Part shown: piece by piece, positions 1-60,258 of the stretch
Position numbering within the stretch: position 1 is the first letter of the stretch
How the letters are laid out: every line of letters begins with the position of its first letter
Made by a program: the position numbers and the translations under genes
Origin: a virus
Taxonomy: Duplodnaviria; Caudoviricetes
Direction: 5' to 3' (one strand)
IMG/VR virus record: IMGVR_UViG_3300046002_006203
Coordinates: 1 to 60,258 of that record
DNA length: 60,258 bases
The notes under the pieces: model-generated
What the model was told of the DNA's origin: nothing
Database searches by the model: none
The model's input: only the letters and a program-made list of their open reading frames with translations

Positions 1-127
1 CCTGACCGGCAAAAGCGCAGTCAATGCCGAGTCAGGCATGAAGATCACCTTCACCAACGCTGGGGCAAAGAAGCTGTCTGGCCGCAAAGGCGATATCCTT
101 TTCCGTTCTGTGCCAGCATTGCGCGCT
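1..127 (+). repeat. 127-bp terminal direct repeat, copy 1 (circular assembly overlap)
   Basis: Identical to 60132-60258; lies inside a reading frame that continues across the join. Confidence 0.97.
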
Positions 128-3100
128 ATCATCGAAAATGGGGTTGTCGCGTCCACATCACCGGAAACCAAAGGCCGCCAGCACATCAAGGCGTGGCACC
201 ACATTTCCGCAACGGTCGTCATTGATGGGAAGCCGCGCGACCTGATCGCCCATGTCTTTGAAACACAGGACGGCAGTTTTCACTATGACCTTTCGCGGGA
301 TATGAGCGACGGGGCTAGGTTCATGCGCCTGAGCGCGGATACCTCGATTGCGGAAGACCGCTACGGTTTGGAAGACAACCCCGTCGAGGTGAATATAGAC
401 TTTGCGCCCGAAGTTGGCAAGGCTGATGGATCGGTTCCCGTGGGAGCGATGCGCGGCATAACGGCATCCTTGAACAAGGAACTCGCCAAATCCGGCCTTA
501 CTGGCAAGGTTTACCCGATCTTGGTTCGCCGGTTGCTTGGCGAATCCGGTGTTGAAATCGCTGGGCGCCAGCAGGGCCACAAGATCGAAATCAACGAGGC
601 CGTCAGCGACAAGATCGGCGTGCTGCGCCATGAAATCGTCCACGCCCTGCGCGATGATGCGCTCTGGGATAAGCCATTCGGCCTGTTCACCGGCGCGGAG
701 TGGAAAACCCTTGTCGCCCATGCCCGCGCCAACGAGGACATGATGGCGCGCATTGCCAAGGCCTATCCGAACCTGAACACCGCAGGCCAGATCGAGGAAG
801 TTGTGGCCGAACTCTACCGCGAGTGGGCGCAGGACCACGACACCAAGTCGGCAGTCGGCAAAGCCTTCGACAAGATCCGCGCCATGTTCCGCGCATTTGC
901 TTCGGCCCTGCGCGGCGAAGGGTTTGATGATGCGGCCCTTGTCATGGAGCGGATCGCGCGCGGCAAGATCGGTGGGCGCGGGCCGGATGGTCCGATGGGC
1001 GGCGGCAAGAAGGCCGCGCCTGAAATGCGCGCGCCCAGCGTTGAAAGCGCAGCCTTCAAGGCATGGTTCGCCAACAGCAAGGTGATAGACGGCGATGGAA
1101 AGCCGCTGGTGGTTTATCATGCCACAAACGCTGACTTTAATGCCTTTGATCGCGCTAAACTTGGTAGGAATGTTACGGCTGCCAGCACCAAAATGGCGGC
1201 AACTGCAAAGATTGGACACTGGTTTTCAGATCACGACATATCGTCGGATGCCGCAATGGCAGTTGTCATGCCGACATACCTTTCAATTGCAAATCCAATT
1301 GAAACTGATCTGTTGTCACTAGCTGATGCAATCGAATCTGCTGGCGGCCCAAAGCGGTTTATTCTGGCGGCACGAGAACAAGGCCATGACGGGGCTATCG
1401 TGGTCGATGAAGAGTTTGGTGGGAAGTCATATGTTGCCTTCTCACCAACTCAGATCAAATCCGCATTCAATCGCGGCACTTGGGACGCATCCAACCCAAA
1501 GATTTCTGAAATGCGTCTGGACCTTCTGAAATCGAAGGCGACTGCGCTGGTAGGCACCGGCCACTGGCGCAGCCCGTCTGACTGGCTGACCGATGCGATG
1601 AACGGCAAGAGCGGCTATAACACCCTGTCATTGGTCCCAAGCCGCCCGCTGTTCAGTGAACTTGGAAAGTGGTCATTCGGTGCCAAGGCTTACCTCAAGG
1701 CCAAAGAGGGGATGGATGCGCTCCGCAACGAATGGCACGCACGGGCCGATGTGGTATCGCAGGCATGGTTGAAGATCGCCCGCAAGAACCAGAAGGCCAA
1801 TGAGTCCTTCATGGAACTGATGCACCTGTCCACTATCGAGGGGATCGACCCGTCGCGCGTGGATACTTGGGAACACCCGTTCTATGGCGTCGCCAAGGCA
1901 TCTATCGCCCGTCTGGGTGACAAGGCTCCTGACTGGGCCAAGGACGCTGTGCGGGCCACTGAGCGGCACCACGCATCCTACAAGAACCTGACCGTCCTGT
2001 ATGACGCGCTGCCTGCCGAGTTTCAGGCGATGTATCGGAAGGTGCGGAACGAATACGACGATCTTGGCGACGACTTTGAAAAGGCCGTGATCGACAATAT
2101 CCGCCAAGGCACCAAGATCGGCATCAAGCGGGCCGAGCGGGCCTATCAAAAGGAGTTGGCGCGGATCAAGGACGAGGGATTGACCGGCGACGAGAAGGCC
2201 GAGGCAGAGGAAAAGGCCAAGCAGGCCCATGACGCGGTGAAATCGCGCGGCGGCTGGGCATCGGAAGCGCGGATCGGGATGCTGCGGCAGACCTTCGAGT
2301 CCAATCGGTTGAAGGGGCCATATTTCCCGCTGGCGCGCTTCGGTGATTTCTTCGTCACCACCCGCGACCACACCGGCAAGGTTGTGTCCTTCGCCCGCTT
2401 TGAAAGCGTCAAGGATCAGAAGGCGTTTCAGGCCGAGCAAGAGGCGCTCTATCCGGGCAAGGTCCAGATCGGCACCATGTCCAACAAGGAAGAGTTGAAG
2501 TCGCAGGTTGACCCCAACTTTGTGGCCGATGTGGAGCGGATGCTTGCAGAGTCCGGCGCTTCTTCCGAGGTTATGGATGCCGTCTGGCAACGCTGGCTGG
2601 AGACATTGCCGGATCAGTCAATCCGCACATCGAAGATCCACCGCAAGAACCAAGCTGGTTTCGCCAAGGATGCCTTCCGCGCGTTTGGCAAGCATATGTT
2701 CCACGGCGCGCACCAACTGGCACGCCTGCGCTACGGCATGGTGATGGAGGAACACCTGAACGATGCCGAGGACGAGGCGCGCAAGGCAAAAGACCCCAAC
2801 CGCGCTGGCCTGATCGTCAACGAAATGCGCCGCCGCCATGAGTTCACCATGAACCCGCAGGGCAACGCTGTGGTAGCGTCCATGTCTGGGCTGGCCTTCA
2901 TCTGGTATCTGGGAGCAACGCCAGCCGCCGCCCTTGCCAACGTGTCCCAGACAACCGTTGTCGGCATCCCGATCTTGGCCGCGCGCTTCACCAAGGCGGG
3001 TTTCTCCGGGGCCATGTCCCAGATCGCCAAGGCGACCAAGGATTTTGCCAACGGGAAGGGCCATGCTGACAAGTCGGCAAACCTGACCGACGCCGAGCGC

Positions 3101-4393
3101 GACGCCTTCCGCCAAGCCTACAAGCGCGGCACCATCGACAAGACGCAGGCGCATGATCTGGCATCGGTGGCCGAAACAGGCATCGAATACAACGCGCGCC
3201 GCGAGAAGGTGATGCGCGTGATCGGCGCCATGTTCCACCACACCGAGCGGTTCAACCGCGAAGTGACCTTCCTCGCAAGCTACCGGCTGGCCGTGGCCGA
3301 TGGGCTGGCCCATGAGGAAGCGATTGACGCCGCCGCAGATTCGACGTGGAAAATCCACTTCGACTACCAGAATACGAGCCGCCCGCGCATCATGCAGAGC
3401 GATATCGGGAAGTTGCTCACGGTCTTCCGCAACTACTCTGTGAATATGCTGTGGCGTCTTTTCCGCGATACACATCAAGCACTTAACGGTGCAAGCAAGG
3501 AGGAACGGGCGGAGGCGCGCACCCAACTGATCGGGCTTTCGCTGTCAATGATGGCGCACGCCGGTATCAAGGGCGTCTGGGGCTACGGCCTGATTATGAT
3601 GCTGCTGGGCATGTTCTTCTCTGGCGGTAGCGATGATGCCGAGGAATGGTTGCAAGACGCATTGCTGATGGAGGGCGACTCCGCTGGTGTCGCGGCTTGG
3701 AACTATGCCATGGGGGCCGCGCTGCAAGGCATCCCCGGCCAAGTCGCAAGGATAAACCTGACGGACCGGATCGGTATGCCAAACCTGTGGTTCCGTGGCG
3801 CCGACCGCGACCTTGAGGGCGAGGATCTCTACGCGCACTATGTAGGGGAATTGCTGGGTCCGGTCTTCGGGATTGGCGAGGGCGTCTTCCGTGGTGTGTC
3901 GTTGGCTGCGGATGGCAACCTGTGGCGCGGGACCGAGGCGGCATCCCCGAAAGTGATCCGCGACTTGATGAAGGGGTATCGCTTCGCTGCCGATGGCGCG
4001 CTGACTCTGAACGGCGACGATATCGTGGCCGATGTTTCGCCCTACCAGATCATCATGCAGGTCAACGGTTTCACCCCCGCCCAGATCGCGGAGCGTTACG
4101 ATATCAATAACCGCCTCAAGAATGGGGAAAAGCAGATCGTTGACGAGCGCACCGGCATTCAGCGTGAGGCTGGCGATGCGCTGCGGTCTGGCGCGGGGCT
4201 TTCGGAATCCATGATTGAGAAGATCCGCGACTTCAACCGGCGATACCCTGAATATCCGATCACCGGCGAAACCATCGGGCAGTCGATCAAGAGCCGGATG
4301 CGGGCCAGCAGCCGCAACGAATCCGGCATTGCGTTGAACCCGAAATTGAACGACCGGCTTCGGTCAGAAGAGCCTCCGGCGATATACAACTAG
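2..4393 (+). CDS. darB: C-terminal part of the giant DarB-like protein (LPD3-like, HExxH zincin, ADP-ribosyltransferase-like, PLxRFG domains)
   Basis: In frame with the 47266 ORF via the terminal overlap; HEIVH 629-643; FKAWF..PLVVYHAT..YVAFSPTQIKS ~1050-1500; YFPLARFG 2321-2344. Confidence 0.88.
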   Translation: MTGKSAVNAESGMKITFTNAGAKKLSGRKGDILFRSVPALRAIIENGVVASTSPETKGRQHIKAWHHISATVVIDGKPRDLIAHVFETQDGSFHYDLSRDMSDGARFMRLSADTSIAEDRYGLEDNPVEVNIDFAPEVGKADGSVPVGAMRGITASLNKELAKSGLTGKVYPILVRRLLGESGVEIAGRQQGHKIEINEAVSDKIGVLRHEIVHALRDDALWDKPFGLFTGAEWKTLVAHARANEDMMARIAKAYPNLNTAGQIEEVVAELYREWAQDHDTKSAVGKAFDKIRAMFRAFASALRGEGFDDAALVMERIARGKIGGRGPDGPMGGGKKAAPEMRAPSVESAAFKAWFANSKVIDGDGKPLVVYHATNADFNAFDRAKLGRNVTAASTKMAATAKIGHWFSDHDISSDAAMAVVMPTYLSIANPIETDLLSLADAIESAGGPKRFILAAREQGHDGAIVVDEEFGGKSYVAFSPTQIKSAFNRGTWDASNPKISEMRLDLLKSKATALVGTGHWRSPSDWLTDAMNGKSGYNTLSLVPSRPLFSELGKWSFGAKAYLKAKEGMDALRNEWHARADVVSQAWLKIARKNQKANESFMELMHLSTIEGIDPSRVDTWEHPFYGVAKASIARLGDKAPDWAKDAVRATERHHASYKNLTVLYDALPAEFQAMYRKVRNEYDDLGDDFEKAVIDNIRQGTKIGIKRAERAYQKELARIKDEGLTGDEKAEAEEKAKQAHDAVKSRGGWASEARIGMLRQTFESNRLKGPYFPLARFGDFFVTTRDHTGKVVSFARFESVKDQKAFQAEQEALYPGKVQIGTMSNKEELKSQVDPNFVADVERMLAESGASSEVMDAVWQRWLETLPDQSIRTSKIHRKNQAGFAKDAFRAFGKHMFHGAHQLARLRYGMVMEEHLNDAEDEARKAKDPNRAGLIVNEMRRRHEFTMNPQGNAVVASMSGLAFIWYLGATPAAALANVSQTTVVGIPILAARFTKAGFSGAMSQIAKATKDFANGKGHADKSANLTDAERDAFRQAYKRGTIDKTQAHDLASVAETGIEYNARREKVMRVIGAMFHHTERFNREVTFLASYRLAVADGLAHEEAIDAAADSTWKIHFDYQNTSRPRIMQSDIGKLLTVFRNYSVNMLWRLFRDTHQALNGASKEERAEARTQLIGLSLSMMAHAGIKGVWGYGLIMMLLGMFFSGGSDDAEEWLQDALLMEGDSAGVAAWNYAMGAALQGIPGQVARINLTDRIGMPNLWFRGADRDLEGEDLYAHYVGELLGPVFGIGEGVFRGVSLAADGNLWRGTEAASPKVIRDLMKGYRFAADGALTLNGDDIVADVSPYQIIMQVNGFTPAQIAERYDINNRLKNGEKQIVDERTGIQREAGDALRSGAGLSESMIEKIRDFNRRYPEYPITGETIGQSIKSRMRASSRNESGIALNPKLNDRLRSEEPPAIYN

Positions 4394-47175: not shown

Positions 47176-47270
47176 TTGCTGCAATCGCACCAAATGGGGT
47201 ATGGGTAACGAACACCGGCTGCCATAGGATGTGTCAGCCATAGATACGACCGTGAGGGAACGTCTATGGC
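47176..47270 (+). promoter_or_regulatory. darB promoter and leader switch
   Basis: TTGCTG-N18-TATGGG; GGCTG.C.CAT-AGGAT-GTG.T.CAGCC (47217-39); two GCCATAG strands complementary to the start region CTATGGC. Confidence 0.7.
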
Positions 47271-50200
47271 GATTGACTTTGGCTTTGGCCCTATGGGCGC
47301 TATTCCTGAACCTCTGACTCCCGACCAAAAGCGGAAGAAAGTCGAAGGGATCGCGCTCAAGACGCAGGTTCCGGCCAACGTCCTGATGGCTCTCGATGAA
47401 GCCGGTATCTCCGACCATGAGGGCGCTGCAACGCAGATCGCGGCGGCCATGGCTCAAGGCAAGCCGCTTGATGCCGCAGTGGCGGATATTGCAGGCAACC
47501 CCGACACCGCCAAGGCGCTTATGAGCCGTGCCTATGACATTGCCGATGCGCTCTACCCGCGCGCCGCAGCGCCAGCGGCAACACCTGACACCGGACGGCC
47601 AAAAGAGGCGAACCTTTTGCGGGATGTGGCAGGGGTATTGGCGGTCGGCGCATCTGATGGCGCCGCAATGGGCGTTGAGTATCTTGGGTCTGCTGCCGAT
47701 CAGGGCATTTCTGGTGCCGCCTATGCCGCGAACAAATACCTTGCGAACCCAATACTCGAAGGCATCACAGGCAAAAAGGACATGCTGCCGACAGCCAGCA
47801 AGCCGCTTGATGTTCCGATAGCGGCTACGGCTGCAAGGGTTATTGCAGGATGGCTGGGAGAAGAAGGGCTTTCCGGCTATCTCGATGAAAGCCTTGTTTC
47901 GCAAGCGGCTCTGGATGCAGAGCAAAACTTCATGCCAACGGGCGACATTACCGACCCTTCTACACTTGCATGGGGGAAAGATCCGACCATTCGGGGTGCG
48001 GTGATTTCAGGAGCGCGCGTGCTTGGCACAATGGTTCCCGTGATCGCGGCATCGCTGTTGAGCAAGAACCCGACAATTGCAGCCGGGGCGGTTGGTGGCT
48101 TGATGGCCGGTGGCGATGGGCAACGACTTGCGGCCGACACAGTTGACGCCAAATGGGCTGAGAAAATGCCTGATGGCCGGTCACGGCTGGAAGCCGAGAC
48201 GCCGCTTTTCCAGAAATACCAATCAGAAGGCATGACTCAGGAACAGGCAAAAGACCGGATCAGGTCCGATGCTATGGCGTGGTCTGGTAATCTTCAGGCC
48301 GTCGTTGGCGCGTTTGGCGGTGCAGCAACCGGCGCAATAGCACGCGGAGGGCTTGCTAGAGCGGCGGGTGGGGGGATGGCCCAACGTGCGTCCGTATCCG
48401 GCATTGGGGCTGGGCTTGAAGAAGGCGCCCAAGAGGTTACGGAGGGTGTCGCCGCCCGAACCGGCATCAACATAGGTGCCGGAACTGATATCAGTGTCAC
48501 CGCCGAGTCATTTCCCAACGCAGTCCTTGGCGCAATGGGCGGCGGGCCTTTTGGTGCTATCGCTGGCGCAGCAAATGGGCCGCCCCAGCCTGTCAACCAG
48601 CCTAATCCCATCCCTCCCCAAACCTCTGGCGATGGCAGCGCCAGGGGCCAGGCTCCCGATATTGGTGCAGACGCCGGTTTTGCACCCGTGTCGGGGGCCG
48701 ACCAAGGCTTTGGTGCGATTCCACCCGAAGCCGCTCCGGTGCAGCCCGCAGCCCCGACCGGCCCGATTTCGGCGGCAGCGGCTAAGGCTCCCGACATGAC
48801 CCCGCAGCCGGTGGCGCCGGAAGCCCCGCCCATGTTCCCTGACATGAAGGCAGGCGCGGAAGTCCGCTTGAAGGCACCGGATGGCAAGATCTACCCCGCC
48901 AAGTTTCAGCGGGAAGAAGGCGGGATGGCCGTTGTCCGCATCGGCGGAAGCGAAGTCAGCATGTCGCCGGAAGAGTTCGATATGGCGGTCTATTCGGCCC
49001 GCATTGACGACGTAGAGGCCGAAGCTGCTGTCACCGGCAAGCCGATCAAGACTGCGCCCACGGCAAGCCCTGACGAGATTTTCGGAAATGTCGGCCCCGC
49101 CGACCCAGTGAAGCCCGACCTGTCACGCCCTCCCGTGCTGGCCGGATCGCTTGCGGCCCAAGCGCAGGCGAAAGGCCCAGCGGTTGCCACGCCTCCAGTG
49201 ATCGCTGGGCCTGCTATTCCCGCTAATCCACCCGCCGACGCCGGAAACAAGGCAAGCGAATTGCCTTCGGCCTTGGGCAGCATGGGAAAGGGAATGGCCG
49301 ATGGCCTCTATGATATGCTCTGGTCCAACGTCGAAAAGGGCAGCGTCAAGGATGCCAGCGGGTCCACAGACCCTATCCTGAAAGCCGCCAAGCGCGTGCG
49401 CTCCGTCGCTGGCAACACCCTGACTCGTGAAAACTTCAAGGAGTTTGCCCAGTCGCATTTCGCAATGATGCAGTTGCCGATTGAACAGCGCAGCAAGGTC
49501 TATGCGGAACTGGTGGCGAAATACACACCGGCAACCGGAGGTCAGAAAGATGGCGAAGCAACCACAGCCACCGTTCCCAACCCCGCAGCAAGCGGCGGAT
49601 TGGCTGGCACGGCACAAAATGATCCTGCCATCGGAAGCGCAGGAGATCCGCAACCTGCTGTGGAAGCAGGACTCAATCTGGATCGGCCCACAGAGTCACC
49701 TGTATCCAGCAATGACCAAGATCGCGGTTCTGAATTGGCCGATGCCGAGCCTGTCGGTCCACTGACCGGCAAAGTCGGCCAGCATTTCGCTGCCGGTGAC
49801 GAGCCGTTTACGACGAGCGGACGCAAAACCACGCCATTCCCGAAGATCGACGCCGCCTCTGAACGCAAGACTGCCAACACGGTCAAGCGGGTTGAACAAT
49901 GGCTGATGGCAAACGCTCTGGCCGAGGCCGAAGCGCGCGGTGACGACTTCAACGCCACCATGTTCCGCGCCAATCTCGAAAAGCCCAGCCAGTCGGACAA
50001 GGACTCCGCAGAGGCTTATTTGTTCGATGATGCCATGTCGGCAAAGAACATGCCGCCCGCGCCGAAGATCACCAAGCCTCTGGTGGCCGACAAGCCAGCA
50101 GACAAGCCGGATGAAAAACCGGAAGAGAAAAAGGAACCGTCCCTGCGCTGGGACACAGCCAAGGATTCTGGCCGCATTCCAGACGGCTATAGCGTGGAGG

Positions 50201-53200
50201 TTCAGGACGGCGATGTGTTTGGCTTCTACGGGCCGAACCGCAAGCAATTCTTCCCCGCTGGCCGAACCTTCATGGCGGAACGGGATGCCTCACAACACGA
50301 ACGCGACGTTGATGTGATGCTTAACCGAATGACTCAGCGGGCGGCGAAGAACGCGGATCGTGACGCCGAGGATGATAAGAAGCCGGATCAACCGGCCACC
50401 CCTGAATCCGCGCCTGAGGACGGCGCCGATACATCCAATGCGGCCCAGATGGACGCCGCTGCCGCCGAGGCCGACCCCAATCCGACACCGGCGCAGGCCG
50501 AGGCTGGCAACTACAAGCACGGCCATATCATGTGGAACGGGCTGGATCTGACCATCGAGAATGCCAAGGGTTCAACCCGCACCGGCGTCTCTGCCGATGG
50601 GCAGGAGTGGTCCGTCACGATGCCAGCGCACTATGGCTACATCAAGCGCACCACCGGCGCGGATGGTGAGCATGTGGACGTTTACATCGGGGAATCGCCG
50701 GAAAGCGATTTCATCATGGTGGTCGATCAGGTTGACGCCGAAACCAAGGAGTTTGACGAGCATAAGGTAATCATCGGCATCACCAGCGCGGCCAATGGCA
50801 AGGCGCTCTATGAGGCAGGTTTCTCGGACGGCAAAGGCGCGGCCCGCTTCGGAGGCGCGCGGAAAATGACCGTGGACGAGTTCAAGACTTGGCTGGAGGA
50901 AGGCGACCTTTCAAAGCCGGTCACGAACAAGGTCAGGGCGGCGCCGGGGCCGAAGATCGAGGACTTCGGGCAGAAGATTGGCGGCGCACGCAAGGACAAG
51001 GCTGCGCGCTCCATTCAGGATCTTCGCGCAGACCGCAACACCGCCACCATGACGCTGACCGAGGCATTCCCTGAGCCGGATTATGAGGCGCTGGCCGCAA
51101 ATGGCGTCGATGTTGAACGTCTCGCCTTCGCTGCCGTGGCGCGGTCCACCATCGAGCGCAAGCCGGTGGCACAGAGATACTGGAAGATTTCTTACTGGGT
51201 GAAGGAGGTAGATGATCGCCGCATGATCGTGGCCGACCTTCTGGATGGTGTGATTGATCTTCCGACCGCAATGAGCCGTATCGGGTTCTCCGGTGAAGGC
51301 CAGCCTGCCTTGATTGATATGGTCAAGCGGTTCCCCGTGGACATGATTGCCGAGGCGGCATCCTACAAAGCGCACCCTAACACCACCCACTTTTCCTATT
51401 CGACGGACCCAGCAACTGGAATCCGCACCTCTGTCACGTCCAAACGCTTCGGGATTGGCCGCCCGAATGACAAGAGTTACCGGATCAGCGCGACCTATCC
51501 GACCATTGATGATGCGGTTGTGGAAATCAAAGCCATGATCGAGGCGGAGCGCAAAGCGCGTGCTGCGGCTGGGCCTCTCAAGCGCACACGCAAGCCGGTT
51601 GCCTTGGGTATATGGGCTGGCAATGGCAATCTCTTCTATATCGGGTTCAAGGTTACTGACTGGGTGCAGTTGGCCGGTCCATTTGCCACCCGCGAAGATG
51701 CCAAGACCCACCTGAGCGAGAACCGCGAGTCTTTGCAGGAAGAGGCCGAAGTGATGCGGGATGGACCGGCAGAGCGCCGCACCACCAACTCGCCGCGCGT
51801 CGGGCCGGATCACCGCACCGGCAATGTGACACCGGAGCAATTCCAGAAGGCATTTGGCTTCCGTGGCGTGGAATTTGGAAACTGGACCACCGGCACGGAT
51901 CGTCAGGTGCGCTTGAATGAAGCCTACGACGCCCTGATGGATATGGCCGGTGCGCTGAATATCCCGACCGAGGCAATCTCGCTCAATGGTGCGCTGTCTC
52001 TGGCCTTCGGTGCGCGTGGAAAAGGTGGGCGCAACCCCGCCGCCGCGCATTATGAACCCAGCTATGTGGTCATAAACCTGACCAAAGAGAACGGTGCAGG
52101 ATCGCTGGCGCATGAATGGTGGCACGCGATCGACAACCATCTTGCCAAGTTGGATGCCGTGGGCAGCGACACGCCTGCCGCCATGTCTGGCACCAAGTCA
52201 AAGCGCCGCGACGAATATGCGACCGACCGCGCCCGCCGCACCGGCAGCCTGTCCGAAGCCGAGTGGACCGCGCTCAAGAAGCTGAAAACTGCCCTGACGC
52301 AGAAATCTGCGCCATGGTTCCTCCGGTCCCAAGCCTTCGACCGCGCCCGCTCTGAACCCTACTTCTCTACCACCATCGAACTCGCGGCGCGCGGGTTTGA
52401 GCGTGTCGTCACGGACAACCTGCAAGCGCGCGGGATGAACAACGACTTCCTCGCCAACATCGAAGAGGGTGCTGGCGCATATCCGACCACCGCAGAGGCC
52501 CGCCGCCAAGGTGTGCGCGATGCCTTCAATGATGTGCTGGACGCAGTTTCAGCGCGCCTGTCCGAAGGTGGCGGCACCAAGGTCGAACTGCCGCCCATCG
52601 ACCCGCAGCTTATCGAGGATGGACCGCAGGCAGGGTTTGAGTGGGAAAGCCCGACCGGCATCAAGAAGATCACCGCCCGCAATGGCGATCAGGTGACGAT
52701 GGAAACTCAAAAGCGCGGCGGTGGTGTTTACACGGACGATTGGCCTCTCGCTCATGTCGAGGACATGATCGACGCCGACCAACAGGCCATGTCGCCGGAG
52801 GGCATCGCTGCGCGTGAGGTCAAGGAAAAGGCCGCCGCCATCGCAGAAGAAAAGCGCTCTGCCAATGAAGCGTTGTCGGGCAAGGCCGAGGAATTGGTGG
52901 GCCAATTCATCTGGTCGATTCCGAAGGCCAAGCGGGGCCGTATTCCCGAAACCATCCGCTATGGCTCCATCGGCCTGCGGACCGGATCAGACTCGGACGC
53001 GATCTACCTGCCAAAATTTGTTCATGTGGTGCGTCTGGTTGACGCTGGCTGGCGTGTCCGGTCTGGCTTTAAGGGTGTGGAAAACCTGTATTCGCCTGAC
53101 CGCACCAGTTACGACAAGGTTTTCGACAAGAACCTGCTGGCCTTCGCCAAATGGTATGGCGACAAACTGAACGACGAGGCTGACACCGCAGAGGCAGAGC

Positions 53201-56200
53201 GGCCCGATGCCGCGTCGGAAGAGGATCTGGCACACCTCTTTGGTAAGGACGCGCCGGAACCGCTCAACGCCCCTGAGTTGATTGATCCGCCGGAAGAAGA
53301 GCCTGCCTCTACCGAGCCTGCGCCACCCGTGCAAGAGCCTCCTGCTGATCCGGCACCCAAGCCCGCACCGAGCGGCTTGAAGGGGCTGACGGAGGCGGAA
53401 AACGAGCAGTTGGCGGCCCTTGAGGCCCAGTTCCTCGATATCTTCAAGACGCAGATGAACTCCGGCCTTGATCCGAAACTTGTATCGGTCGCGGCCCAGA
53501 TTGGCGCGCTCTATGTGAAGGCTGGCACGCGCCGGTTCCGCGCGCTGATCGACGCCATGATGCAGCGCCTTGGATTGACGCTGGAGCAGGCACAGCCCTA
53601 CGCCCGCAATGCCTACAACCAGATCCGCGACGATATGGAACTGGCTGGTGAAGATATCGCTGACATGGACAGCAGCGCGGACGTGATCGCAGAAGTCCGC
53701 AAGATGCGGATCGTGGAGGCAAAAGCAGGGGGAAAGCCCGCCTCGCAAGGTGATGCAGAACCTGCTACAGTCGCGCCAGAGGCACAGGAGGGCGCTGCCA
53801 ATGACCAAGCAGGAAGTGGCGATGCGAGTAATGGAGTCGTGGCGGACGGCGCACCCGAAAGTGGTGACGCTGTGGAAGCCGGAACTGCTCCAAGTGGAAG
53901 CGGACGCGATGGCGGGGATGATCTTGGCGGAAGCGAAGGCGAATACGTTCCCGCTGGACCGGATCGAACCCCAAGTGTCGGAAGCGATGGCCCTGATGCT
54001 GCGTTCCCCGCCGCCGATGCCAACGCGGCGTCAGCGCAAAGCGGCGTAACTCCGCGCTCTGGCGTCAGCCAAGGCAATTACCAGATCACGGACGCACTTG
54101 GCCTTGGCAAAGGCACGGACGGCCAGAAGATCGCTGGCAACATCGCGGCAATCCGCCTTGCCCAGAAGATCAAGGCTGAAAACCGCTTTGCGACCAAGGA
54201 AGAACAGGACACTCTGGCCCGCTATGTTGGATGGGGCGGCCTGAAAACGGTCTTTGACGTGAAGAAGGCCAAATCCACCGACCAGTGGGGCAAGGCGCAG
54301 CGTGAGTTGAAGGAACTGCTGTCACCGGCAGAATATCTGGATGCTTTCCAGACAGTTTCCAACGCGCACTATACCTCCAAGCCGGTTGTCGATGCGATGT
54401 GGCGCGCAATGCGTCACTTCGGGTTCAAGTCGGGCCGCGCTCTTGAGCCGACCGTGGGTGTTGGCAACTTCTTGGGCGCGCAGCCCGCCGATATGGCGCC
54501 GGTCACGGAATGGTTTGCCTCCGAACTGGACACCATCACCAGCCTGATCGCCTATCACCTCTATCCCGATGCAACGATCCTTCCGGCGACCGGCTTCCAA
54601 GACGCACCGTTCCGCGATGGCTCGTTTGATATCGTGATCGGAAACCCGCCCTTCGGTGGCGAGACGATCAGGGACCGCAACCCCGCGCGCAAGCACCTGT
54701 CGGGGATGAAGATCCACAACTACATCATCGCCAAGGCAGGGATTCACCTTCGCCAAGGCGGGATCATGTCGATGGTGGTCACGCATCGGTTCCTCGATAC
54801 CGACAACGCCGAGGCGCGCGATGTGCTGGCAAAGGGATTCCGTTTCGTGGGCGCAATCCGCCTGCCGAATGACGCCTTCCGCGACAACGCAGGCACCGAT
54901 GTTGTCACCGATATCATCTTCCTGCAAAAGCTGGCCGAGGGTCAGGAGCCGGATCTTGCCGCCGCGTGGCTCGACACCAACGGCACTATCACCGTGGACG
55001 GAAAGCCAATCCGCGTGAACCGTTACTTCCAAGATCACCCTGACCATATCCTTGGCAAATCGGCCATGGACGGCACGATGTATGCCAAGGGCGGGAAGAA
55101 TGGCACGGAATACACCGTCCACGGCGATGGCCGCGACGTTGCGGCTGCAATCGACCGCGTTCTGACCGAAGGCATGGCCGCAGAGAAGGGCATCCTTGGC
55201 GACCGCGCGAAGGCGCTGGAAGAGGCTATTGCAGCCGAGGACACCTCCAAGATGGCAATCGGCAGCATGGCAATGCTGGATGATGGCCGGATCATCCGCC
55301 GCGAAATGAACCGCAGCATTTCTGAGGTGACGGAGCAAACCTTCTGGGGCGAATACGCAGAGCAATGGTCCTTGGCCGCCGACGCCATTGCCCAGATCCG
55401 CGACAACATGCGGGCCGGGAAGAAGCCGGATCAGGACCATATCGACCAGCTTCTTGACCAGAAGGACGTTGCCTACCTCAAGAGCGGAAAGAAGGCTTCC
55501 AAGCCCAGCCGTGTCGAACAGGCTTTCTACGATATCGTGGATGCAATCATTGATGGCAAAGCCGAATGGGCATTTGACGAGCAACTGGACCTGATCCGCG
55601 ACCATTCCGACAATAAGCGGATCGGAGCCAAGCGGTTCAAGACGCTGACCGGCCTGCTGTCCCTGCGCCGCAATACCCTCGCCCTGATCCGCGCCGAGTA
55701 TCAGGATTCGCCCAAGATTGAGGCCATGCGGAAGTCTCTGGACGCGCAGTATGAGGCGTTTGTGGCAGCCCATGGGTTCATCAGCAATCCGGCTGTGTCT
55801 GGACTTCTGCAAGGCGATATCGGGCCGGAAGTCGGCTTGGAGTCCAAGTATTCCGAGGAACTCAAGGGCGAAGTGAACGGCAAAAAGGTTATCGTTGAGC
55901 CTGAGTCAGCCACCAAATCCTCGATCCTGTCGCGCCGCGTCAACTATCCGCACAAGACCAATTTCACGGCAAACACCCCCAGCGAAGCCCTGTTGATTTC
56001 CATGTCGGAGCGGGGCCGCGTGGACCTTGCATTCATGGCTGAAACTCTGGGGCGCGACGCTGCCGAGATTCGGGCCGAACTGTCGCAAGGCAACGATCCT
56101 GAAATCTTCTTCGACCCCGAAACCGAGACTTGGGAACACGCAGAGGCGTATCTGACCGGCAATGTCCGCGCCAAGATGCAGAAGGCCTATGCCGCTGGCA

Positions 56201-59200
56201 TGATGGTGAACGGCGACGCATTGAAGAAGGTGCAGCCCGCGCCAATGACTTCTGACCGCATCGTTCCGGCAATCCGCAGCCAGTGGATTCCAGAAGAGGT
56301 CTTTGAGGACTTCCTGTCCGATATCGGGCTGAAGGAGGCCAAGGTCACGATCATGCCACGGGCCGGTATGGTCACGGCAACGGCGCGCGAAACGTCTTCG
56401 CTCACCGATTACGGCCAGCAATTCAGCAACTCGCACAAAACCATTGTCGATATTTTCACGGCAGCCGTGAACGGCAAGACGCTGACCGTCAGCTACAAGG
56501 ATGAGAATGGCAACACCCGCAAGGATGAGGAAGGCACCAAGCAGGTTACAGCCCTGATCGAGCGCATGGGCAAAGAGTTCCGCGCATGGGCCTATCTCGA
56601 CCCCACCCGCACCGAGGCCATTGTCACGGCGTTCAACGAGAAGATGAATGTGTTCCGCAAGCGTGAGTTTGACGGCGAAAAATACCTGAAACTGGTGGGG
56701 GCCAATACCGGAGCCGGTGGGTTTGAACTCCGGCGCACCCAGAAGAATGGGGCATGGCGCATCATCCAGCAGGCATCCGTGCTACTGGATCACGTTGTCG
56801 GGGCAGGCAAGACCCTGACGCTTGTTGCTGGCATCATGGAGCGCCGCCGTTTGGGACTGTCGCGCAAACCCATGATCGCAGTCCCCAACCACCTTGTCAT
56901 GCAATGGACGCGCGATTTCTTGCAGTTTTACCCTGCCGCGCGCATCTTGGCGGCCACGCCGAAGGATTTTGAGGGGGAAAACCGCAAGCGCATGTTCGCA
57001 CGGATTGCCACAGGCGATTTCGATGCCGTTATCATCGGCCACTCGTCGCTTGGTTTCATCCAGCCGCCCGAATCCGATTTGCGCGACGTGATCCAAGACC
57101 AGATCGAAGAGTTGCAGCAGGTTCTCGATGAAGCCCGCCGCAATGGCGAAAGCAAGCGCACGCTGTCCCAGATCGCAAAGCGCCTGCAATCCTACGAGGA
57201 CAAGCTGGACGAGCTGTCCACCAAGAAGCGCGATGATCTTGGGTTCGACTTCGCGGAAATGGGCATCGACTACCTCGCAGTAGACGAGGCGCACGAGTTC
57301 AAGAACCTCGAATACAACACCGCCCAGCAACGCCTTGTCGGCATGAACAACCCGACCGGTTCCAAGCGCGCCTTTGACCTTCTGGTGAAGGTCCGCGGCA
57401 TCCAGAAGCGCAAGGGGGCCGTCCACTTCGCCACCGGCACGCCGGTTTCCAACTCGCTTGTCGAAGCCTATTCGATGATGAAATACCTCGCTTACGATGA
57501 ATTGAAGGCGGTGAATCTGGCGCATTTTGACGCTTGGTCTGCGGCCTTTGTCGAGGCGGAAACGCGGTTTGAATACACCGCGACCCAGAAGTTGAAAGAG
57601 CGTAAGGTTATGTCGCGCTTGGTCAACCTTGGCGTTCTGTCGCAGATCTATCGCGGCTTTGCGGACGTGATCGACCGCAATGACCTTGAGCGCATCTATG
57701 CCGAGCAGATCCGGTCTGAGAACGCAAAAAACGGCGAGAACAAGAGTGAGCGTTTCCCAACTCCACGAGTAAAGGGTGGCGCACGCCGGTTGCTGTCGGC
57801 CCCGCCGACCGAGTCGCAAAAGTTGGCAACGGATTGGTTTGTCTCCCGTATGGCAGCGATCAAGGCGCGCGCATCCGACAAGGAATACCCGAAGATTGAC
57901 AATGCGCTTTGGGTTCTGTCTGACGCGCGCAAATCGTCGTTGGATATCCGCACGCTGCGCGCCGCATCGCAGATGGACCGTGATGAAAACGGCAAGGTCA
58001 TGCGCGCATCGCGCGAAATCAAGCGCATCTATGACAAGTGGGATGAACAACGCGGGACGCAGCTTGTGTTCTCGGACCTGTCCACCCCGTCCAAGAATGC
58101 CGACAAGGCCGCAGAAAAGGCGATCCGCGACTTGCTGCGGGTTGCGCTTGGTGAGTCTGAGGCAAAGACCTTCTACGAGAAGATCAAAGACCTTCCTTTC
58201 ATGGAGCGGTTCGAGGCGGCATCCGAAGAGGCCGAGACAATCGCAAGCGATCCGATCACCGACGAAAAGCGGCAGGATGCGATATCGGCTTGGTTTGCCG
58301 ACAATCAGGATGCGGCGGGCCTGATGCTGACCGCAGAGACTGGGTTCTCCGTCTATGATGATATGCGGAAGGTGCTGATTGAGGAAATGGGCATTCCCGC
58401 CCATGAGATTGCCTTCATCCACGACTACAATACGGCAGAAGCCAAGGCCAAGCTGTTCAAAATGGTCAAATCCGGGCAAATCCGCGTGCTGTTTGGATCG
58501 ACACCGAAGATGGGCGCTGGAACAAACGTGCAAGAGCGGGCCGTTGCACTGCACCACGTCGATAGCCCATGGCGACCGTCTGATGTGGAGCAGCGCGAAG
58601 GCCGCGTGATCCGGCAGGGCAATGACCTATACGATGCAGACCCAGACGGCTTTGAAGTCGAGATTCTGGCCTACTCCACCACCGGCACCTCTGATGTGGT
58701 GCTGTGGCAAGTTCTGGAGCGCAAGGCACGCTCCATCGGCACCTTCCGTCAGGGCGAACTGGACGCGGTGGACGAGGGCGAAGGCGACGCGGACAGCTAT
58801 GCCGAGTTCATGGCGCAATCGACCGGCAATCCCGTCTTCAAGTTGAAGATGCAGGCTGAAAAGGATCTGGTCGAACTGACTGCGACCACCTCCGGCGCTC
58901 TTCTGAACCGCCAGCGCGCCAAAGACTTCGTGTCGTCCTTTGATCGCGTGCGCGGGGATAATGCGGCCGCACTAAAAAATGCCAAGGACACCGATCCGGC
59001 GTCGATTTCATACACCTTGCCGACCGGCGAAAAGATCGAAGGCGATGCTGCCGAGTTTACCGCGGCGATGAACGAGGCGCGCGAGGCGTTCCAAGCCGAG
59101 GTGGATGCTTGGGATGATGCCTTTGCCAAGGTCAAAACCCGTCGCGCGCAACTGAACGACGAGGGCAAGAGCCGCACCGAGGCCATGAAAATCCTCAAGG

Positions 59201-60258
59201 ACGAGGGTTTCGCCACGCTTGGGGACCGGCCACAGCGCCCCTCCATTGTCAGCCCAGCGATCACCGAGAAGTCAGGCTATGCCCGCGCCGCCAAGGCGAT
59301 GCTGGAGCATGTCGGGAAGATGCGCGGCGAGGGGCAGGCTGTTGGCAATTTGGCCGGTGGCCGGATCATCATCAGCCGCAAGCAAAACCCGCTGCACATC
59401 GGGGAATACTTCTTTACCGTCGATATCCAGTTTGCTGGCGGCATGACCATGAAGCTGGCCCATAGCGACGCCAAGTCGCCGGTGGAGTCGAGCAATCTGC
59501 GCGATGCACTGGCGCCCGATGCGATCCAGCGCAACATTGACGAGCGCAAGGCCATGCTGGAAAGCCGCATCGCCAGCATGGATCAAAGCCTTCCAGAAAA
59601 GAGGGCAATTGCCGCCCGTGAAATCGGGACGGAAGATCGTGAGGCCGCGCGCGAGGCGGTTGATTACTATGCTGTCGAGGTGAAGCTGGCCGAAGCGCGG
59701 GCCGACTTGGAGCGGGCCGAGCGCGGCGATAACATCTTCATCCAGACGGACTGGAAGCGCAGCCTAACCGATATGGACTCGTCGGTGGTGACAAAGACCC
59801 AGACCTTCGAGTTTGAGGGCGAGACGTTTGAAGGCACCGGCCTTGGCGCGAAGGCAAACGAGCCGTTCTCCACCAAGCAGATCACCTATTACGAGGCAAC
59901 CCGCCTGAGAAACGGGGAGCGCGTCATTCTGGTGGCGCATGATGTGAACGGCAAGGAAGAGCCGCTTCGCATCATCACAGTGCCTGAGCGTGCCAAGCGT
60001 GAAATGGCAGCCGCGAAGGAGTCGCGCTTCCTTGGTCGCAAGCCCGTCGCAACGCTGACCGGCAACGAACTGGGCGAGTGGGAGGACATGAAGCAACTCG
60101 GCAAGAAGGCCGAGGCTTGGTATCGTGAAAACCTGACCGGCAAAAGCGCAGTCAATGCCGAGTCAGGCATGAAGATCACCTTCACCAACGCTGGGGCAAA
60201 GAAGCTGTCTGGCCGCAAAGGCGATATCCTTTTCCGTTCTGTGCCAGCATTGCGCGCT
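47266..60258 (+). CDS. darB: Giant DarB-like polyvalent virion protein, N-terminal part (inorganic-pyrophosphatase-like, LPD5/LPD1-like zincin, N6-adenine methyltransferase, SNF2 helicase); continues across the join to 4393, ~5,752 aa total
   Basis: ATG 47266 after GAGGGA; no other ORF in this frame appears in the track; same frame as ATG 60169 (=38). Motifs: GNYKHGH..IENAKG..HYGYI..GADGEHVDVY (~50500-50700), HEWWH 52111, EPTVGVGNF 54445, NPPF 54643, GAGKT 56800, DEAH 57283, QREGRVIRQG 58591. Confidence 0.9.
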   Translation, partial: MAIDFGFGPMGAIPEPLTPDQKRKKVEGIALKTQVPANVLMALDEAGISDHEGAATQIAAAMAQGKPLDAAVADIAGNPDTAKALMSRAYDIADALYPRAAAPAATPDTGRPKEANLLRDVAGVLAVGASDGAAMGVEYLGSAADQGISGAAYAANKYLANPILEGITGKKDMLPTASKPLDVPIAATAARVIAGWLGEEGLSGYLDESLVSQAALDAEQNFMPTGDITDPSTLAWGKDPTIRGAVISGARVLGTMVPVIAASLLSKNPTIAAGAVGGLMAGGDGQRLAADTVDAKWAEKMPDGRSRLEAETPLFQKYQSEGMTQEQAKDRIRSDAMAWSGNLQAVVGAFGGAATGAIARGGLARAAGGGMAQRASVSGIGAGLEEGAQEVTEGVAARTGINIGAGTDISVTAESFPNAVLGAMGGGPFGAIAGAANGPPQPVNQPNPIPPQTSGDGSARGQAPDIGADAGFAPVSGADQGFGAIPPEAAPVQPAAPTGPISAAAAKAPDMTPQPVAPEAPPMFPDMKAGAEVRLKAPDGKIYPAKFQREEGGMAVVRIGGSEVSMSPEEFDMAVYSARIDDVEAEAAVTGKPIKTAPTASPDEIFGNVGPADPVKPDLSRPPVLAGSLAAQAQAKGPAVATPPVIAGPAIPANPPADAGNKASELPSALGSMGKGMADGLYDMLWSNVEKGSVKDASGSTDPILKAAKRVRSVAGNTLTRENFKEFAQSHFAMMQLPIEQRSKVYAELVAKYTPATGGQKDGEATTATVPNPAASGGLAGTAQNDPAIGSAGDPQPAVEAGLNLDRPTESPVSSNDQDRGSELADAEPVGPLTGKVGQHFAAGDEPFTTSGRKTTPFPKIDAASERKTANTVKRVEQWLMANALAEAEARGDDFNATMFRANLEKPSQSDKDSAEAYLFDDAMSAKNMPPAPKITKPLVADKPADKPDEKPEEKKEPSLRWDTAKDSGRIPDGYSVEVQDGDVFGFYGPNRKQFFPAGRTFMAERDASQHERDVDVMLNRMTQRAAKNADRDAEDDKKPDQPATPESAPEDGADTSNAAQMDAAAAEADPNPTPAQAEAGNYKHGHIMWNGLDLTIENAKGSTRTGVSADGQEWSVTMPAHYGYIKRTTGADGEHVDVYIGESPESDFIMVVDQVDAETKEFDEHKVIIGITSAANGKALYEAGFSDGKGAARFGGARKMTVDEFKTWLEEGDLSKPVTNKVRAAPGPKIEDFGQKIGGARKDKAARSIQDLRADRNTATMTLTEAFPEPDYEALAANGVDVERLAFAAVARSTIERKPVAQRYWKISYWVKEVDDRRMIVADLLDGVIDLPTAMSRIGFSGEGQPALIDMVKRFPVDMIAEAASYKAHPNTTHFSYSTDPATGIRTSVTSKRFGIGRPNDKSYRISATYPTIDDAVVEIKAMIEAERKARAAAGPLKRTRKPVALGIWAGNGNLFYIGFKVTDWVQLAGPFATREDAKTHLSENRESLQEEAEVMRDGPAERRTTNSPRVGPDHRTGNVTPEQFQKAFGFRGVEFGNWTTGTDRQVRLNEAYDALMDMAGALNIPTEAISLNGALSLAFGARGKGGRNPAAAHYEPSYVVINLTKENGAGSLAHEWWHAIDNHLAKLDAVGSDTPAAMSGTKSKRRDEYATDRARRTGSLSEAEWTALKKLKTALTQKSAPWFLRSQAFDRARSEPYFSTTIELAARGFERVVTDNLQARGMNNDFLANIEEGAGAYPTTAEARRQGVRDAFNDVLDAVSARLSEGGGTKVELPPIDPQLIEDGPQAGFEWESPTGIKKITARNGDQVTMETQKRGGGVYTDDWPLAHVEDMIDADQQAMSPEGIAAREVKEKAAAIAEEKRSANEALSGKAEELVGQFIWSIPKAKRGRIPETIRYGSIGLRTGSDSDAIYLPKFVHVVRLVDAGWRVRSGFKGVENLYSPDRTSYDKVFDKNLLAFAKWYGDKLNDEADTAEAERPDAASEEDLAHLFGKDAPEPLNAPELIDPPEEEPASTEPAPPVQEPPADPAPKPAPSGLKGLTEAENEQLAALEAQFLDIFKTQMNSGLDPKLVSVAAQIGALYVKAGTRRFRALIDAMMQRLGLTLEQAQPYARNAYNQIRDDMELAGEDIADMDSSADVIAEVRKMRIVEAKAGGKPASQGDAEPATVAPEAQEGAANDQAGSGDASNGVVADGAPESGDAVEAGTAPSGSGRDGGDDLGGSEGEYVPAGPDRTPSVGSDGPDAAFPAADANAASAQSGVTPRSGVSQGNYQITDALGLGKGTDGQKIAGNIAAIRLAQKIKAENRFATKEEQDTLARYVGWGGLKTVFDVKKAKSTDQWGKAQRELKELLSPAEYLDAFQTVSNAHYTSKPVVDAMWRAMRHFGFKSGRALEPTVGVGNFLGAQPADMAPVTEWFASELDTITSLIAYHLYPDATILPATGFQDAPFRDGSFDIVIGNPPFGGETIRDRNPARKHLSGMKIHNYIIAKAGIHLRQGGIMSMVVTHRFLDTDNAEARDVLAKGFRFVGAIRLPNDAFRDNAGTDVVTDIIFLQKLAEGQEPDLAAAWLDTNGTITVDGKPIRVNRYFQDHPDHILGKSAMDGTMYAKGGKNGTEYTVHGDGRDVAAAIDRVLTEGMAAEKGILGDRAKALEEAIAAEDTSKMAIGSMAMLDDGRIIRREMNRSISEVTEQTFWGEYAEQWSLAADAIAQIRDNMRAGKKPDQDHIDQLLDQKDVAYLKSGKKASKPSRVEQAFYDIVDAIIDGKAEWAFDEQLDLIRDHSDNKRIGAKRFKTLTGLLSLRRNTLALIRAEYQDSPKIEAMRKSLDAQYEAFVAAHGFISNPAVSGLLQGDIGPEVGLESKYSEELKGEVNGKKVIVEPESATKSSILSRRVNYPHKTNFTANTPSEALLISMSERGRVDLAFMAETLGRDAAEIRAELSQGNDPEIFFDPETETWEHAEAYLTGNVRAKMQKAYAAGMMVNGDALKKVQPAPMTSDRIVPAIRSQWIPEEVFEDFLSDIGLKEAKVTIMPRAGMVTATARETSSLTDYGQQFSNSHKTIVDIFTAAVNGKTLTVSYKDENGNTRKDEEGTKQVTALIERMGKEFRAWAYLDPTRTEAIVTAFNEKMNVFRKREFDGEKYLKLVGANTGAGGFELRRTQKNGAWRIIQQASVLLDHVVGAGKTLTLVAGIMERRRLGLSRKPMIAVPNHLVMQWTRDFLQFYPAARILAATPKDFEGENRKRMFARIATGDFDAVIIGHSSLGFIQPPESDLRDVIQDQIEELQQVLDEARRNGESKRTLSQIAKRLQSYEDKLDELSTKKRDDLGFDFAEMGIDYLAVDEAHEFKNLEYNTAQQRLVGMNNPTGSKRAFDLLVKVRGIQKRKGAVHFATGTPVSNSLVEAYSMMKYLAYDELKAVNLAHFDAWSAAFVEAETRFEYTATQKLKERKVMSRLVNLGVLSQIYRGFADVIDRNDLERIYAEQIRSENAKNGENKSERFPTPRVKGGARRLLSAPPTESQKLATDWFVSRMAAIKARASDKEYPKIDNALWVLSDARKSSLDIRTLRAASQMDRDENGKVMRASREIKRIYDKWDEQRGTQLVFSDLSTPSKNADKAAEKAIRDLLRVALGESEAKTFYEKIKDLPFMERFEAASEEAETIASDPITDEKRQDAISAWFADNQDAAGLMLTAETGFSVYDDMRKVLIEEMGIPAHEIAFIHDYNTAEAKAKLFKMVKSGQIRVLFGSTPKMGAGTNVQERAVALHHVDSPWRPSDVEQREGRVIRQGNDLYDADPDGFEVEILAYSTTGTSDVVLWQVLERKARSIGTFRQGELDAVDEGEGDADSYAEFMAQSTGNPVFKLKMQAEKDLVELTATTSGALLNRQRAKDFVSSFDRVRGDNAAALKNAKDTDPASISYTLPTGEKIEGDAAEFTAAMNEAREAFQAEVDAWDDAFAKVKTRRAQLNDEGKSRTEAMKILKDEGFATLGDRPQRPSIVSPAITEKSGYARAAKAMLEHVGKMRGEGQAVGNLAGGRIIISRKQNPLHIGEYFFTVDIQFAGGMTMKLAHSDAKSPVESSNLRDALAPDAIQRNIDERKAMLESRIASMDQSLPEKRAIAAREIGTEDREAAREAVDYYAVEVKLAEARADLERAERGDNIFIQTDWKRSLTDMDSSVVTKTQTFEFEGETFEGTGLGAKANEPFSTKQITYYEATRLRNGERVILVAHDVNGKEEPLRIITVPERAKREMAAAKESRFLGRKPVATLTGNELGEWEDMKQLGKKAEAWYRENLTGKSAVNAESGMKITFTNAGAKKLSGRKGDILFRSVPALRA
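49550..49765 (+). CDS. Putative nested (+1 frame) 71-aa gene inside the giant ORF
   Basis: GGAGG 49537-41, 8 nt before ATG; protein-like sequence MAKQPQPPFPTPQQAADWLARHKMILPSEA...; the host frame here is a low-complexity linker. Confidence 0.55.
   Translation: MAKQPQPPFPTPQQAADWLARHKMILPSEAQEIRNLLWKQDSIWIGPQSHLYPAMTKIAVLNWPMPSLSVH
53801..54049 (+). CDS. Putative nested (+1 frame) 82-aa gene inside the giant ORF
   Basis: AGGAGG 53786-91, 9 nt before ATG; helical-looking MTKQEVAMRVMESWRTAHPKVVTLWKPELL...; the host frame is a G/D/A/S linker. Confidence 0.6.
   Translation: MTKQEVAMRVMESWRTAHPKVVTLWKPELLQVEADAMAGMILAEAKANTFPLDRIEPQVSEAMALMLRSPPPMPTRRQRKAA
60132..60258 (+). repeat. 127-bp terminal direct repeat, copy 2
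   Basis: Identical to 1-127. Confidence 0.97.

Follow-up and report, generated by a model that had tools for sequence, protein, structure and literature searches.

The sequence analyzed here, referred to throughout as the window, is the whole of IMG/VR virus record IMGVR_UViG_3300046002_006203 (60,258 nucleotides (nt); Duplodnaviria, Caudoviricetes), a complete virus genome with direct terminal repeats (1-127 = 60132-60258). It carries a giant gene that continues across the repeat and encodes a polyvalent protein of 4331 + 1421 = 5752 amino acids (aa), about 29% of the 60,131-base-pair unique genome. The domains identified with Pfam fit the DarB-type definition, an N6-adenine methylase fused to an SF2/SNF2 helicase, with LPD domains in addition, and polyvalent proteins with this methylase-helicase dyad are described in the portion of Iyer et al. 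2017 available to us (PMC5512222). Ahead of the methylase-helicase module the giant frame crosses a linker, and within the bases of that linker lies a second open reading frame (ORF), here termed X, which is one base out of phase with its host gene and is the candidate gene considered in this study (Table 1).

Table 1. Features of the giant gene and of the nested ORF X in the window (pLDDT, predicted local distance difference test; pTM, predicted template modeling score).
Feature	Position	Strand	Remarks
Giant polyvalent (DarB-like) gene, first part of host frame	47266..60258	+	Pfam InPase, LPD5, LPD1, Eco57I methylase, SNF2, ResIII, Helicase_C, LPD3; runs off record end
Giant gene, continuation	128..4393	+	ORF 2..4393, 5'-open, matching frame across the 127-nt terminal repeat
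Helical "A domain" of giant protein	53377..53721	+	Conserved, just upstream of linker; aligns with L014 and L003
Host-frame linker, G/D/A/S/E-rich	53722..54069	+	Reads through X one base out of phase; pLDDT 60.2, pTM 0.14
Shine-Dalgarno AGGAGG	53786..53791	+	9 nt ahead of nested ATG (53801)
Nested ORF X, putative gene	53801..54049	+	82 codons plus stop, +1 frame of giant gene; product P0001, predicted three-helix bundle
Start of conserved module N-terminal to methylase (GNYQIT...)	54070..54609	+	
Eco57I-type N6-adenine methylase motif region	54610..54834	+	Pfam, residues 2449-2523, E 3.3e-7
SNF2-related helicase domain	56767..57192	+	Pfam, residues 3168-3309, E 7e-10

An earlier note, made from the sequence of the window, had described an AGGAGG, a 9-nt spacer, an ATG and an 82-codon +1-frame ORF at this place, and all of these coordinates were verified; the stop codon is TAA at 54047-54049. 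On the plus strand, AGGAGG-N5-10-ATG occurs once in the 60-kb window, namely at X. The same note contrasted G/C-ending nested codons with A/T-ending linker codons, in agreement with third-position GC values of 0.795 and 0.458 for the two frames. Across all three codon positions (GC1/2/3) the X frame has 0.651/0.458/0.795, against 0.64/0.464/0.697 for the whole giant gene and 0.795/0.651/0.458 for the host frame over the bases of X, where host GC3 is among the lowest 1.1% of 83-codon windows. Of the 18 out-of-frame open stretches of at least 80 codons in the giant gene, none is as clearly gene-like in the GC profile of its own frame as X, and a weaker version of the pattern is seen in three stretches within the first 2.5 kb of that gene. 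The length and openness of the ORF are ordinary and are no evidence for a gene. The +1 frame of the giant gene contains 123 stop-free stretches, 11 of them with at least 82 codons, and the X stretch (120 codons from stop to stop) ranks 4th; when the linker protein was recoded, the +1 frame stayed open in 35% of trials with synonymous permutation and in 85% with the codon usage of the gene. What gives X significance is its relatives, not the window sequence alone, so that the overprinted-gene reading of the earlier note holds while the reasons it stated are not what carries it.

Searching with the 82-aa product itself by tblastn, a check proposed with that reading, was unproductive: the best phage match had E 0.05, with matches lying in unrelated genes, and plasmids gave no match. 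The product of the window is too diverged to serve as a query; only the flanking host protein led to loci from which the family could be recognized. With blastn, too, the X region gave matches in its flanks alone. The host protein around the linker identified 5 viral, 8 genome and 19 metagenome loci (n=32, with some duplicates), among which the host-frame linker could be aligned only with L014 and L003. In 18 of the 32, a +1 ORF in the same place and frame begins with M-T or M-N (M-R in L003 and L010), and L008, recognized by profile, where X sits ~700 nt further upstream, raises this to 19/32. These ORFs share the pattern MT..EM.Q..L.HW...YP......RQA.A.A.LT..EMDAL...G....AW.EA..LF.L.PPP. and are also kept at GC contents of 0.45-0.49 (L021, L034, L008). 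A profile of 10 core sequences, with the window, L014 and L003 left out, recovered the window's +1 piece at full length (hmmsearch, E 2.8e-4) and that of L014 (1.9e-8) from the 4778 six-frame pieces of all loci. Consistent with this, hhalign of the window X against a profile built without it gave a probability of 81% (E 1.3e-5, residues 1-76).

The 10-core profile also matches the +1 frame of the DarB-like gene in Pseudomonas phage Itty13, Erwinia phage PEp14, Klebsiella phage SopranoGao and Sinorhizobium phage PBC5. With the family member P0077 as tblastn query, 21 phage records (12 named phages) were matched, each under the giant gene. X was present in the 11 cultured phages checked, and by annotated coordinates its match lies in the +1 frame in 9/9 phages with a continuous giant coding sequence (CDS), namely POI1126, Pavtok, VvAW1, Mwe-JY07, LASTA, Atu_ph08, Stean, PEp14 and SopranoGao. 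None of the 21 records annotates X as a nested gene, the older GenBank record of PBC5 having only a frame-sharing "orf33: unknown". We also scanned IMG/VR with a 20-sequence alignment, which gave 78 loci, a few of them the same cultured phages. X is nested in the +1 frame of a long ORF (at least 600 codons) in 77 of these; 69 of the nested copies start with ATG and 8 further ones have no nearby Met; 7 of these 8 carry GTG at the position of the homologous start, and the start in L075 could not be assigned. Closer to the window, the start and the length of 82 codons are shared by five database proteins with 82-85% identity to P0001 (the entry for P0147, of 85 aa, has three additional residues at the N terminus), and contigs from four water metagenomes, ~82-96% identical, span X without an insertion or deletion.

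Initiation signals are conserved together with the ORF. A Shine-Dalgarno (SD) core (GGAG, GAGG or AGGA) stands 5-13 nt before 25 of 26 nested starts, compared with 8.4% (193/2298) of the remaining ATGs in these loci, and it is found in 65/70 further IMG/VR loci. The start codon itself is ATG in 26/26 and 70/78 loci, respectively, and GTG at the homologous start in 7 more of the latter.

To establish which frame is constrained, we compared codon positions among relatives. Nucleotide identity at nested positions 1/2/3 (equivalent to host positions 2/3/1) was 0.602/0.641/0.519 for the 10 core sequences and 0.64/0.677/0.532 for 11 cultured-phage sequences, with a bootstrap P(pos2<=pos3) of 0/5000 in the cultured set. 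As a control, 238 aligned codons of the methylase module from the same loci gave 0.717/0.784/0.443 at host positions 1/2/3. The host third position is thus the best conserved inside X and the worst conserved in the methylase control. Close pairs were compared by counting changed codons as synonymous/nonsynonymous in ungapped nucleotide alignments (11 informative pairs). Counts in the nested versus the host frame were 15/16 versus 3/27 for L017-L018, 13/13 versus 1/20 for PEp14-Stean, 8/4 versus 2/11 for LASTA-SopranoGao, 23/28 versus 2/53 for L001-L034, and 26/30 versus 2/50 for Atu_ph08-PBC5. Among the differences listed for the environmental contigs, the 6 within X fall at the nested third (4), first (2) and second (0) positions, while those in the flanks, placed manually, are mostly at the host third position. 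Overall, changes gather at nested third positions, where they are mostly synonymous, and are nearly all nonsynonymous in the giant frame. Taken together, these sequence comparisons show purifying selection acting on the X frame.

The giant frame is maintained in a different way. Over X it reads NDQAGSGDASNGVVADGAPESGD..., rich in G/D/A/S/E, and given the X protein and the codon usage of each locus, the median probability that it would be open by chance is 0.026 (0.096 in the window); in fact it is open in 24/24 sequences, which indicates that the giant frame too is kept open by selection. In the window, host first positions, which are the nested third positions, are G in 54/83 and T in 3/83 cases. 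Because X codons mostly end in G and avoid T, host codons begin with G, cannot be stops and encode mostly Gly, Asp, Glu, Ala and Val, and this accounts for the G/D/A/E composition of the linker. Its low GC3 follows from the host third position being the second position of X, whose GC of 0.458 matches the usual GC2 of the gene (0.464). The host-frame peptide was predicted by AlphaFold2 (AF2; 13 sequences) to have no secondary structure, with the scores given in Table 1. Across X, the giant frame has only to stay open and otherwise drifts as a disordered linker, and it is the small frame that holds the amino-acid constraint.

The product of X, by comparison, was predicted with high confidence. 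AF2 with a 61-sequence alignment gave a pLDDT of 94.3 and a pTM of 0.83, with helices at residues 3-22, 27-48 and 52-66; the alignments used for X and for the host peptide differ in depth (61 versus 13), so that the two predictions are not a strict control for each other. An exhaustive profile search of 1.84 billion representatives returned 122 clusters at E<=1e-3, of which 50 had E<=1e-10, with lengths of 36-515 aa. Most members are small proteins beginning at residue 1, typically from short contigs that cut the giant gene, and among the matches there was no giant protein with X in frame. Longer fused forms were sought as well and none were found, which is weak evidence. The family comprises conserved, unnamed small proteins (about 75-135 aa), encoded in the same frame and place in many phages and usually just before the methylase-helicase module. 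One 515-aa member, P0119, follows X for ~45 residues and then continues as the host-frame linker and the methylase module, apparently owing to a frameshift in the assembly, and so displays the overlap directly.

In several relatives X forms an in-frame C-terminal domain, either after the upstream helical domain (P0037, P0050 and PBC5 gp22) or after an HD domain (P0060). In PBC5 (L040, NC_003324.1), the giant gene is split: the gp22 frame enters X in frame and ends at its stop, and the methylase-helicase frame is open from 268 nt before the X ATG. The split may be genuine, or it may reflect a single-base mistake in this old sequence. Scans with P0036, P0053 and P0060 for the context of possibly free-standing members found nothing. 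In the 72-kb IMG/VR contig L063, an intact X of 112 aa with SD and ATG (2492-2830) lacks the surrounding giant ORF, and of the module start only the first ~40 residues are left in the overlapping 241-codon frame, which then degenerates; X may have persisted here as a remnant after the giant gene was lost.

The family could not be connected to a named one. No model in Pfam, PHROG or NCBIfam matches it, Foldseek of X against PDB and BFVD returned nothing at E<=1e-3, and the best hit of a wide fold search with VIA-align was a generic helical match (Z 6.4). The ESM Atlas has only unnamed clusters, and database names for relatives of X go no further than "hypothetical protein". TnpV (PF14198) was considered and set aside as a lead only, its best scores being 14.1 bits (P0087, E 0.048) and 12.3 bits (P0077, E 0.17) in 2/10 members, below the cut-off of 27 bits. 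These two weak matches are in the same register, and TnpV is found on 13% of the members of one Atlas cluster (score 0.79); 0/13 members of sequence set A1 match, and there is no match in the window.

Weighing this evidence, we consider it likely, with a probability of roughly 0.87, that X is a real, selected and separately encoded gene inside the 5752-aa DarB-like gene of this ~60-kb phage, one base out of phase with it. That the nested frame is under selection just before the methyltransferase domain, as the earlier note proposed, is borne out by conservation of the ORF, start and SD, by the codon-position and synonymous/nonsynonymous patterns and by the confident fold. The note had regarded stops in the +1 frame of homologues and a ribosome-binding site that is not conserved as signs against it; neither was seen. 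It had further cast the product as a chaperone, inhibitor or partner of the module, and this part was not shown, with no family, fold or named relative behind it and the position next to the module as its support.

Several observations count against X as a conserved gene serving the giant protein. X is absent from 13/32 homologous loci, all of them AT-rich (GC 0.25-0.375) and of a distant Firmicutes type, and a profile search did not detect it in the corresponding stretch of Ralstonia phage Eline; nor did tblastn with the window product, P0036 or P0136 match any plasmid. The alignments for the codon-position test were built on the nested frame and are slightly biased toward it, those of the close pairs being ungapped nucleotide alignments. 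The pair formed by the window and L014 is saturated (identities 0.427/0.48/0.48; counts 6/29 versus 5/36) and too diverged to be informative, so that the window copy of X rests on homology, close relatives and fold. AF2 is also prone to high confidence for short helical proteins. Finally, the spacing between X and the module varies: the gap from the X stop to the conserved module start is 21 nt in the window, and the module begins within -30 to +150 nt of the X stop in 47/76 loci, 330-573 nt downstream in 19/76 and elsewhere in 10/76.

As to function, we tentatively propose that the three-helix product is an accessory subunit of the methylase-helicase part of the polyvalent protein, made in cis. 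The basis is that X lies inside a DarB-like gene in 21/21 phage records and 77/78 IMG/VR loci and has the module start close to its stop in 47/76; position is the one support for this partnership, in which we have modest confidence. By loose analogy with Ulx, which aids DarB in phage P1, X might act in folding, capsid loading or activity control. Prediction of a complex between X and the 440-residue start of the module scored 0.00 and weighs neither for nor against a partnership. Somewhat less probable, and equally compatible with a real gene, is that X is functionally unrelated to the giant protein, an independent early or antidefense effector that shares its transcript and saves space. Compact genomes of ~60 kb, the variable distance between X and the module, and the presence of X at the C terminus behind unrelated domains (HD in P0060, for example) would all suit such an effector; its confinement to DarB-like genes in all the phage records matched by tblastn and in nearly all IMG/VR loci, and the lack of a plasmid match for the three members tried, would not.

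X would be translated separately from the late transcript of the giant gene by internal initiation at its conserved SD and ATG (GTG in some relatives), as its sequence signals suggest. It is improbable that X is instead reached by a programmed +1 frameshift, as an alternative C terminus of the giant N-terminal half, or that it is normally fused in frame with the window form derived. X is indeed in frame with the upstream domain in PBC5 gp22, P0037 and P0050, and the window has 38 open +1 codons ahead of the X ATG. However, a start codon stands at the first conserved residue with an SD in 25/26 and 65/70 loci, and the +1 frame contains a stop 2 codons ahead of the ATG in five cultured phages (Pavtok, LASTA, Stean, PEp14 and SopranoGao) and at a distance of 5-7 codons in VvAW1 and L020, so that in those five X is unreachable by a frame shift far upstream. 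Reading of the sequence, short of a formal scan, revealed neither a host-frame stop nor a known +1 shift site at which a ribosome would pause. These features favor internal initiation over a frameshift product.

A chance ORF is very improbable. A G/D/A/E linker in a genome of 60% GC has few T at second codon positions, so that the +1 frame would be open by composition (P 0.35-0.85; 11 stretches of at least 82 codons in the same gene), AGGAGG could be mere Glu/Gly codons, and the window product finds nothing by tblastn in phages or plasmids; yet product, start and SD are conserved across ~100 loci, substitutions track the +1 frame, the fold is confident, and X is kept in the three loci of lower GC content. 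Just as improbable is that the giant ORF is not one protein and X an ordinary gene between two genes with an accidentally open host frame, as the split forms (PBC5, P0037 and P0050) and L063 might suggest, because the host frame is open in 24/24 despite a median P of 0.026 per genome and spans X in 77/78 IMG/VR loci, and related giants are detected as single virion proteins (JC1 gp69, 51 unique peptides, in the part of PMC9144972 at hand; JC1 is not a demonstrated X carrier).

If X is a genuine gene, it is possibly the older frame and the linker a later product of reading across it. The existence of split forms, the disordered state of the linker and the way constraint is divided between the frames all fit a linker arising over an older X. 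An elaboration that we regard as rather unlikely is that the giant protein was assembled by fusing two neighboring genes through a resident X, which survives as an internally initiated, obligatory partner. A frame change upstream of X would have led ribosomes to cross it one base out of phase, and the disordered linker that now connects the N-terminal effector and methylase-helicase halves would have arisen de novo. X might then serve, for example, in capsid loading of the fused protein or in holding the methylase-helicase in check, and the ancestral state would be the split arrangement of PBC5, P0037 and P0050, where the upstream protein ends with X.

Elsewhere in the giant gene, the module start at 54070..54609 is probably LPD36 of Iyer et al., a name taken from the available part of PMC5512222. 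Domains resembling the A domain also precede the linker in other loci, and in the window 53380-53709, within this upstream helical region, shares 75.5% of its nucleotides with a stretch of a Roseicitreum antarcticum plasmid annotated as an "N-6 DNA methylase" gene, the match ending before X. Another +1 ORF, of 71 codons with a GGAG-type SD, lies at 49550-49765 in a further low-complexity stretch (open 49469-49762); its GC profile (0.55/0.49/0.70) is more gene-like than that of the host frame (0.70/0.54/0.49), it has no Pfam match, and weaker profiles akin to it occur at 47525-47818 and 48476-48796. On the minus strand of 47266-60258, the antisense frame in codon register is open in 23 stretches with a mean of 187 codons and a maximum of 614 (e.g. 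54322..55812, 496 aa), and such long runs are ordinary at this GC content. They are probably also the origin of a misannotation in Itty13 (L041, NC_070969.1 3621-9014), where the RefSeq CDSs gp01-gp03 are opposite in strand to a 1797-codon open frame carrying PBECR1, Eco57I methylase and ResIII/SNF2, and where the annotated 1153-aa CDS has no Pfam match; the giant gene of this phage seems to have been annotated on the wrong strand.

Giant DarB-like polyvalent proteins account for between a fifth and a third of the genome in these phages and are thought to act as injected counter-defense machines, and the conserved second gene that appears to be hidden in them has so far gone unannotated (0/21 matching phage records). 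Should X indeed partner the methylase-helicase module, it would be a missing component for biochemical and structural work on these proteins. X and its linker also offer a clean natural case of dual coding, in which constraint lies in the small frame and a large protein tolerates a linker set by the codons of another gene, and they bear on how overprinting and gene fusion create disordered linkers. X is testable in cultured phages, where a mutation can abolish one of the two products without altering the other. The literature searched contains no account of a gene nested in a DarB-like or polyvalent gene, and the words "overlapping" and "frameshift" have 0 occurrences in the text of Iyer et al. 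2017 (PMC5512222) as far as it was available. Embedded phage genes are well known; X, its family and its place in DarB-like giants were not found in that literature.

The best-known parallel is Rz1 of phage lambda, which lies inside Rz on the same strand in the +1 frame, has its own start and is made alongside Rz, and whose product is a lipoprotein that binds Rz in lysis. X resembles it as a small gene wholly inside a larger phage gene, in the +1 frame and with a start of its own. Unlike Rz1, the predicted X product is a soluble-looking three-helix protein, the host region is a disordered interdomain linker, and selection falls almost wholly on the embedded frame. Spanin genes of this embedded class are described in the portion of PMC9144972 consulted. 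In P1, Ulx is a 17-kDa head protein that "aids DarB localization" (PMC9024508, partial text). Like X, it is a small protein coded beside a DarB-type methylase-helicase gene, and X may be its functional analogue; in contrast to X, which is overprinted and precedes the module, ulx follows darB as a separate gene. Homology between the two was considered and rejected (hhalign probability 0.16%, E 0.37). Overlapping regions of virus genes have been reported to encode more disorder (bioRxiv 10.1101/229690 and PMC8227390, both in part). As in classical overprinted genes, two frames are read from one stretch at X, with one product ordered and constrained and the other disordered. Unlike in those genes, the disordered product here belongs to a large host protein and the ordered one to a small nested gene, an arrangement that suggests that the linker is the younger frame.

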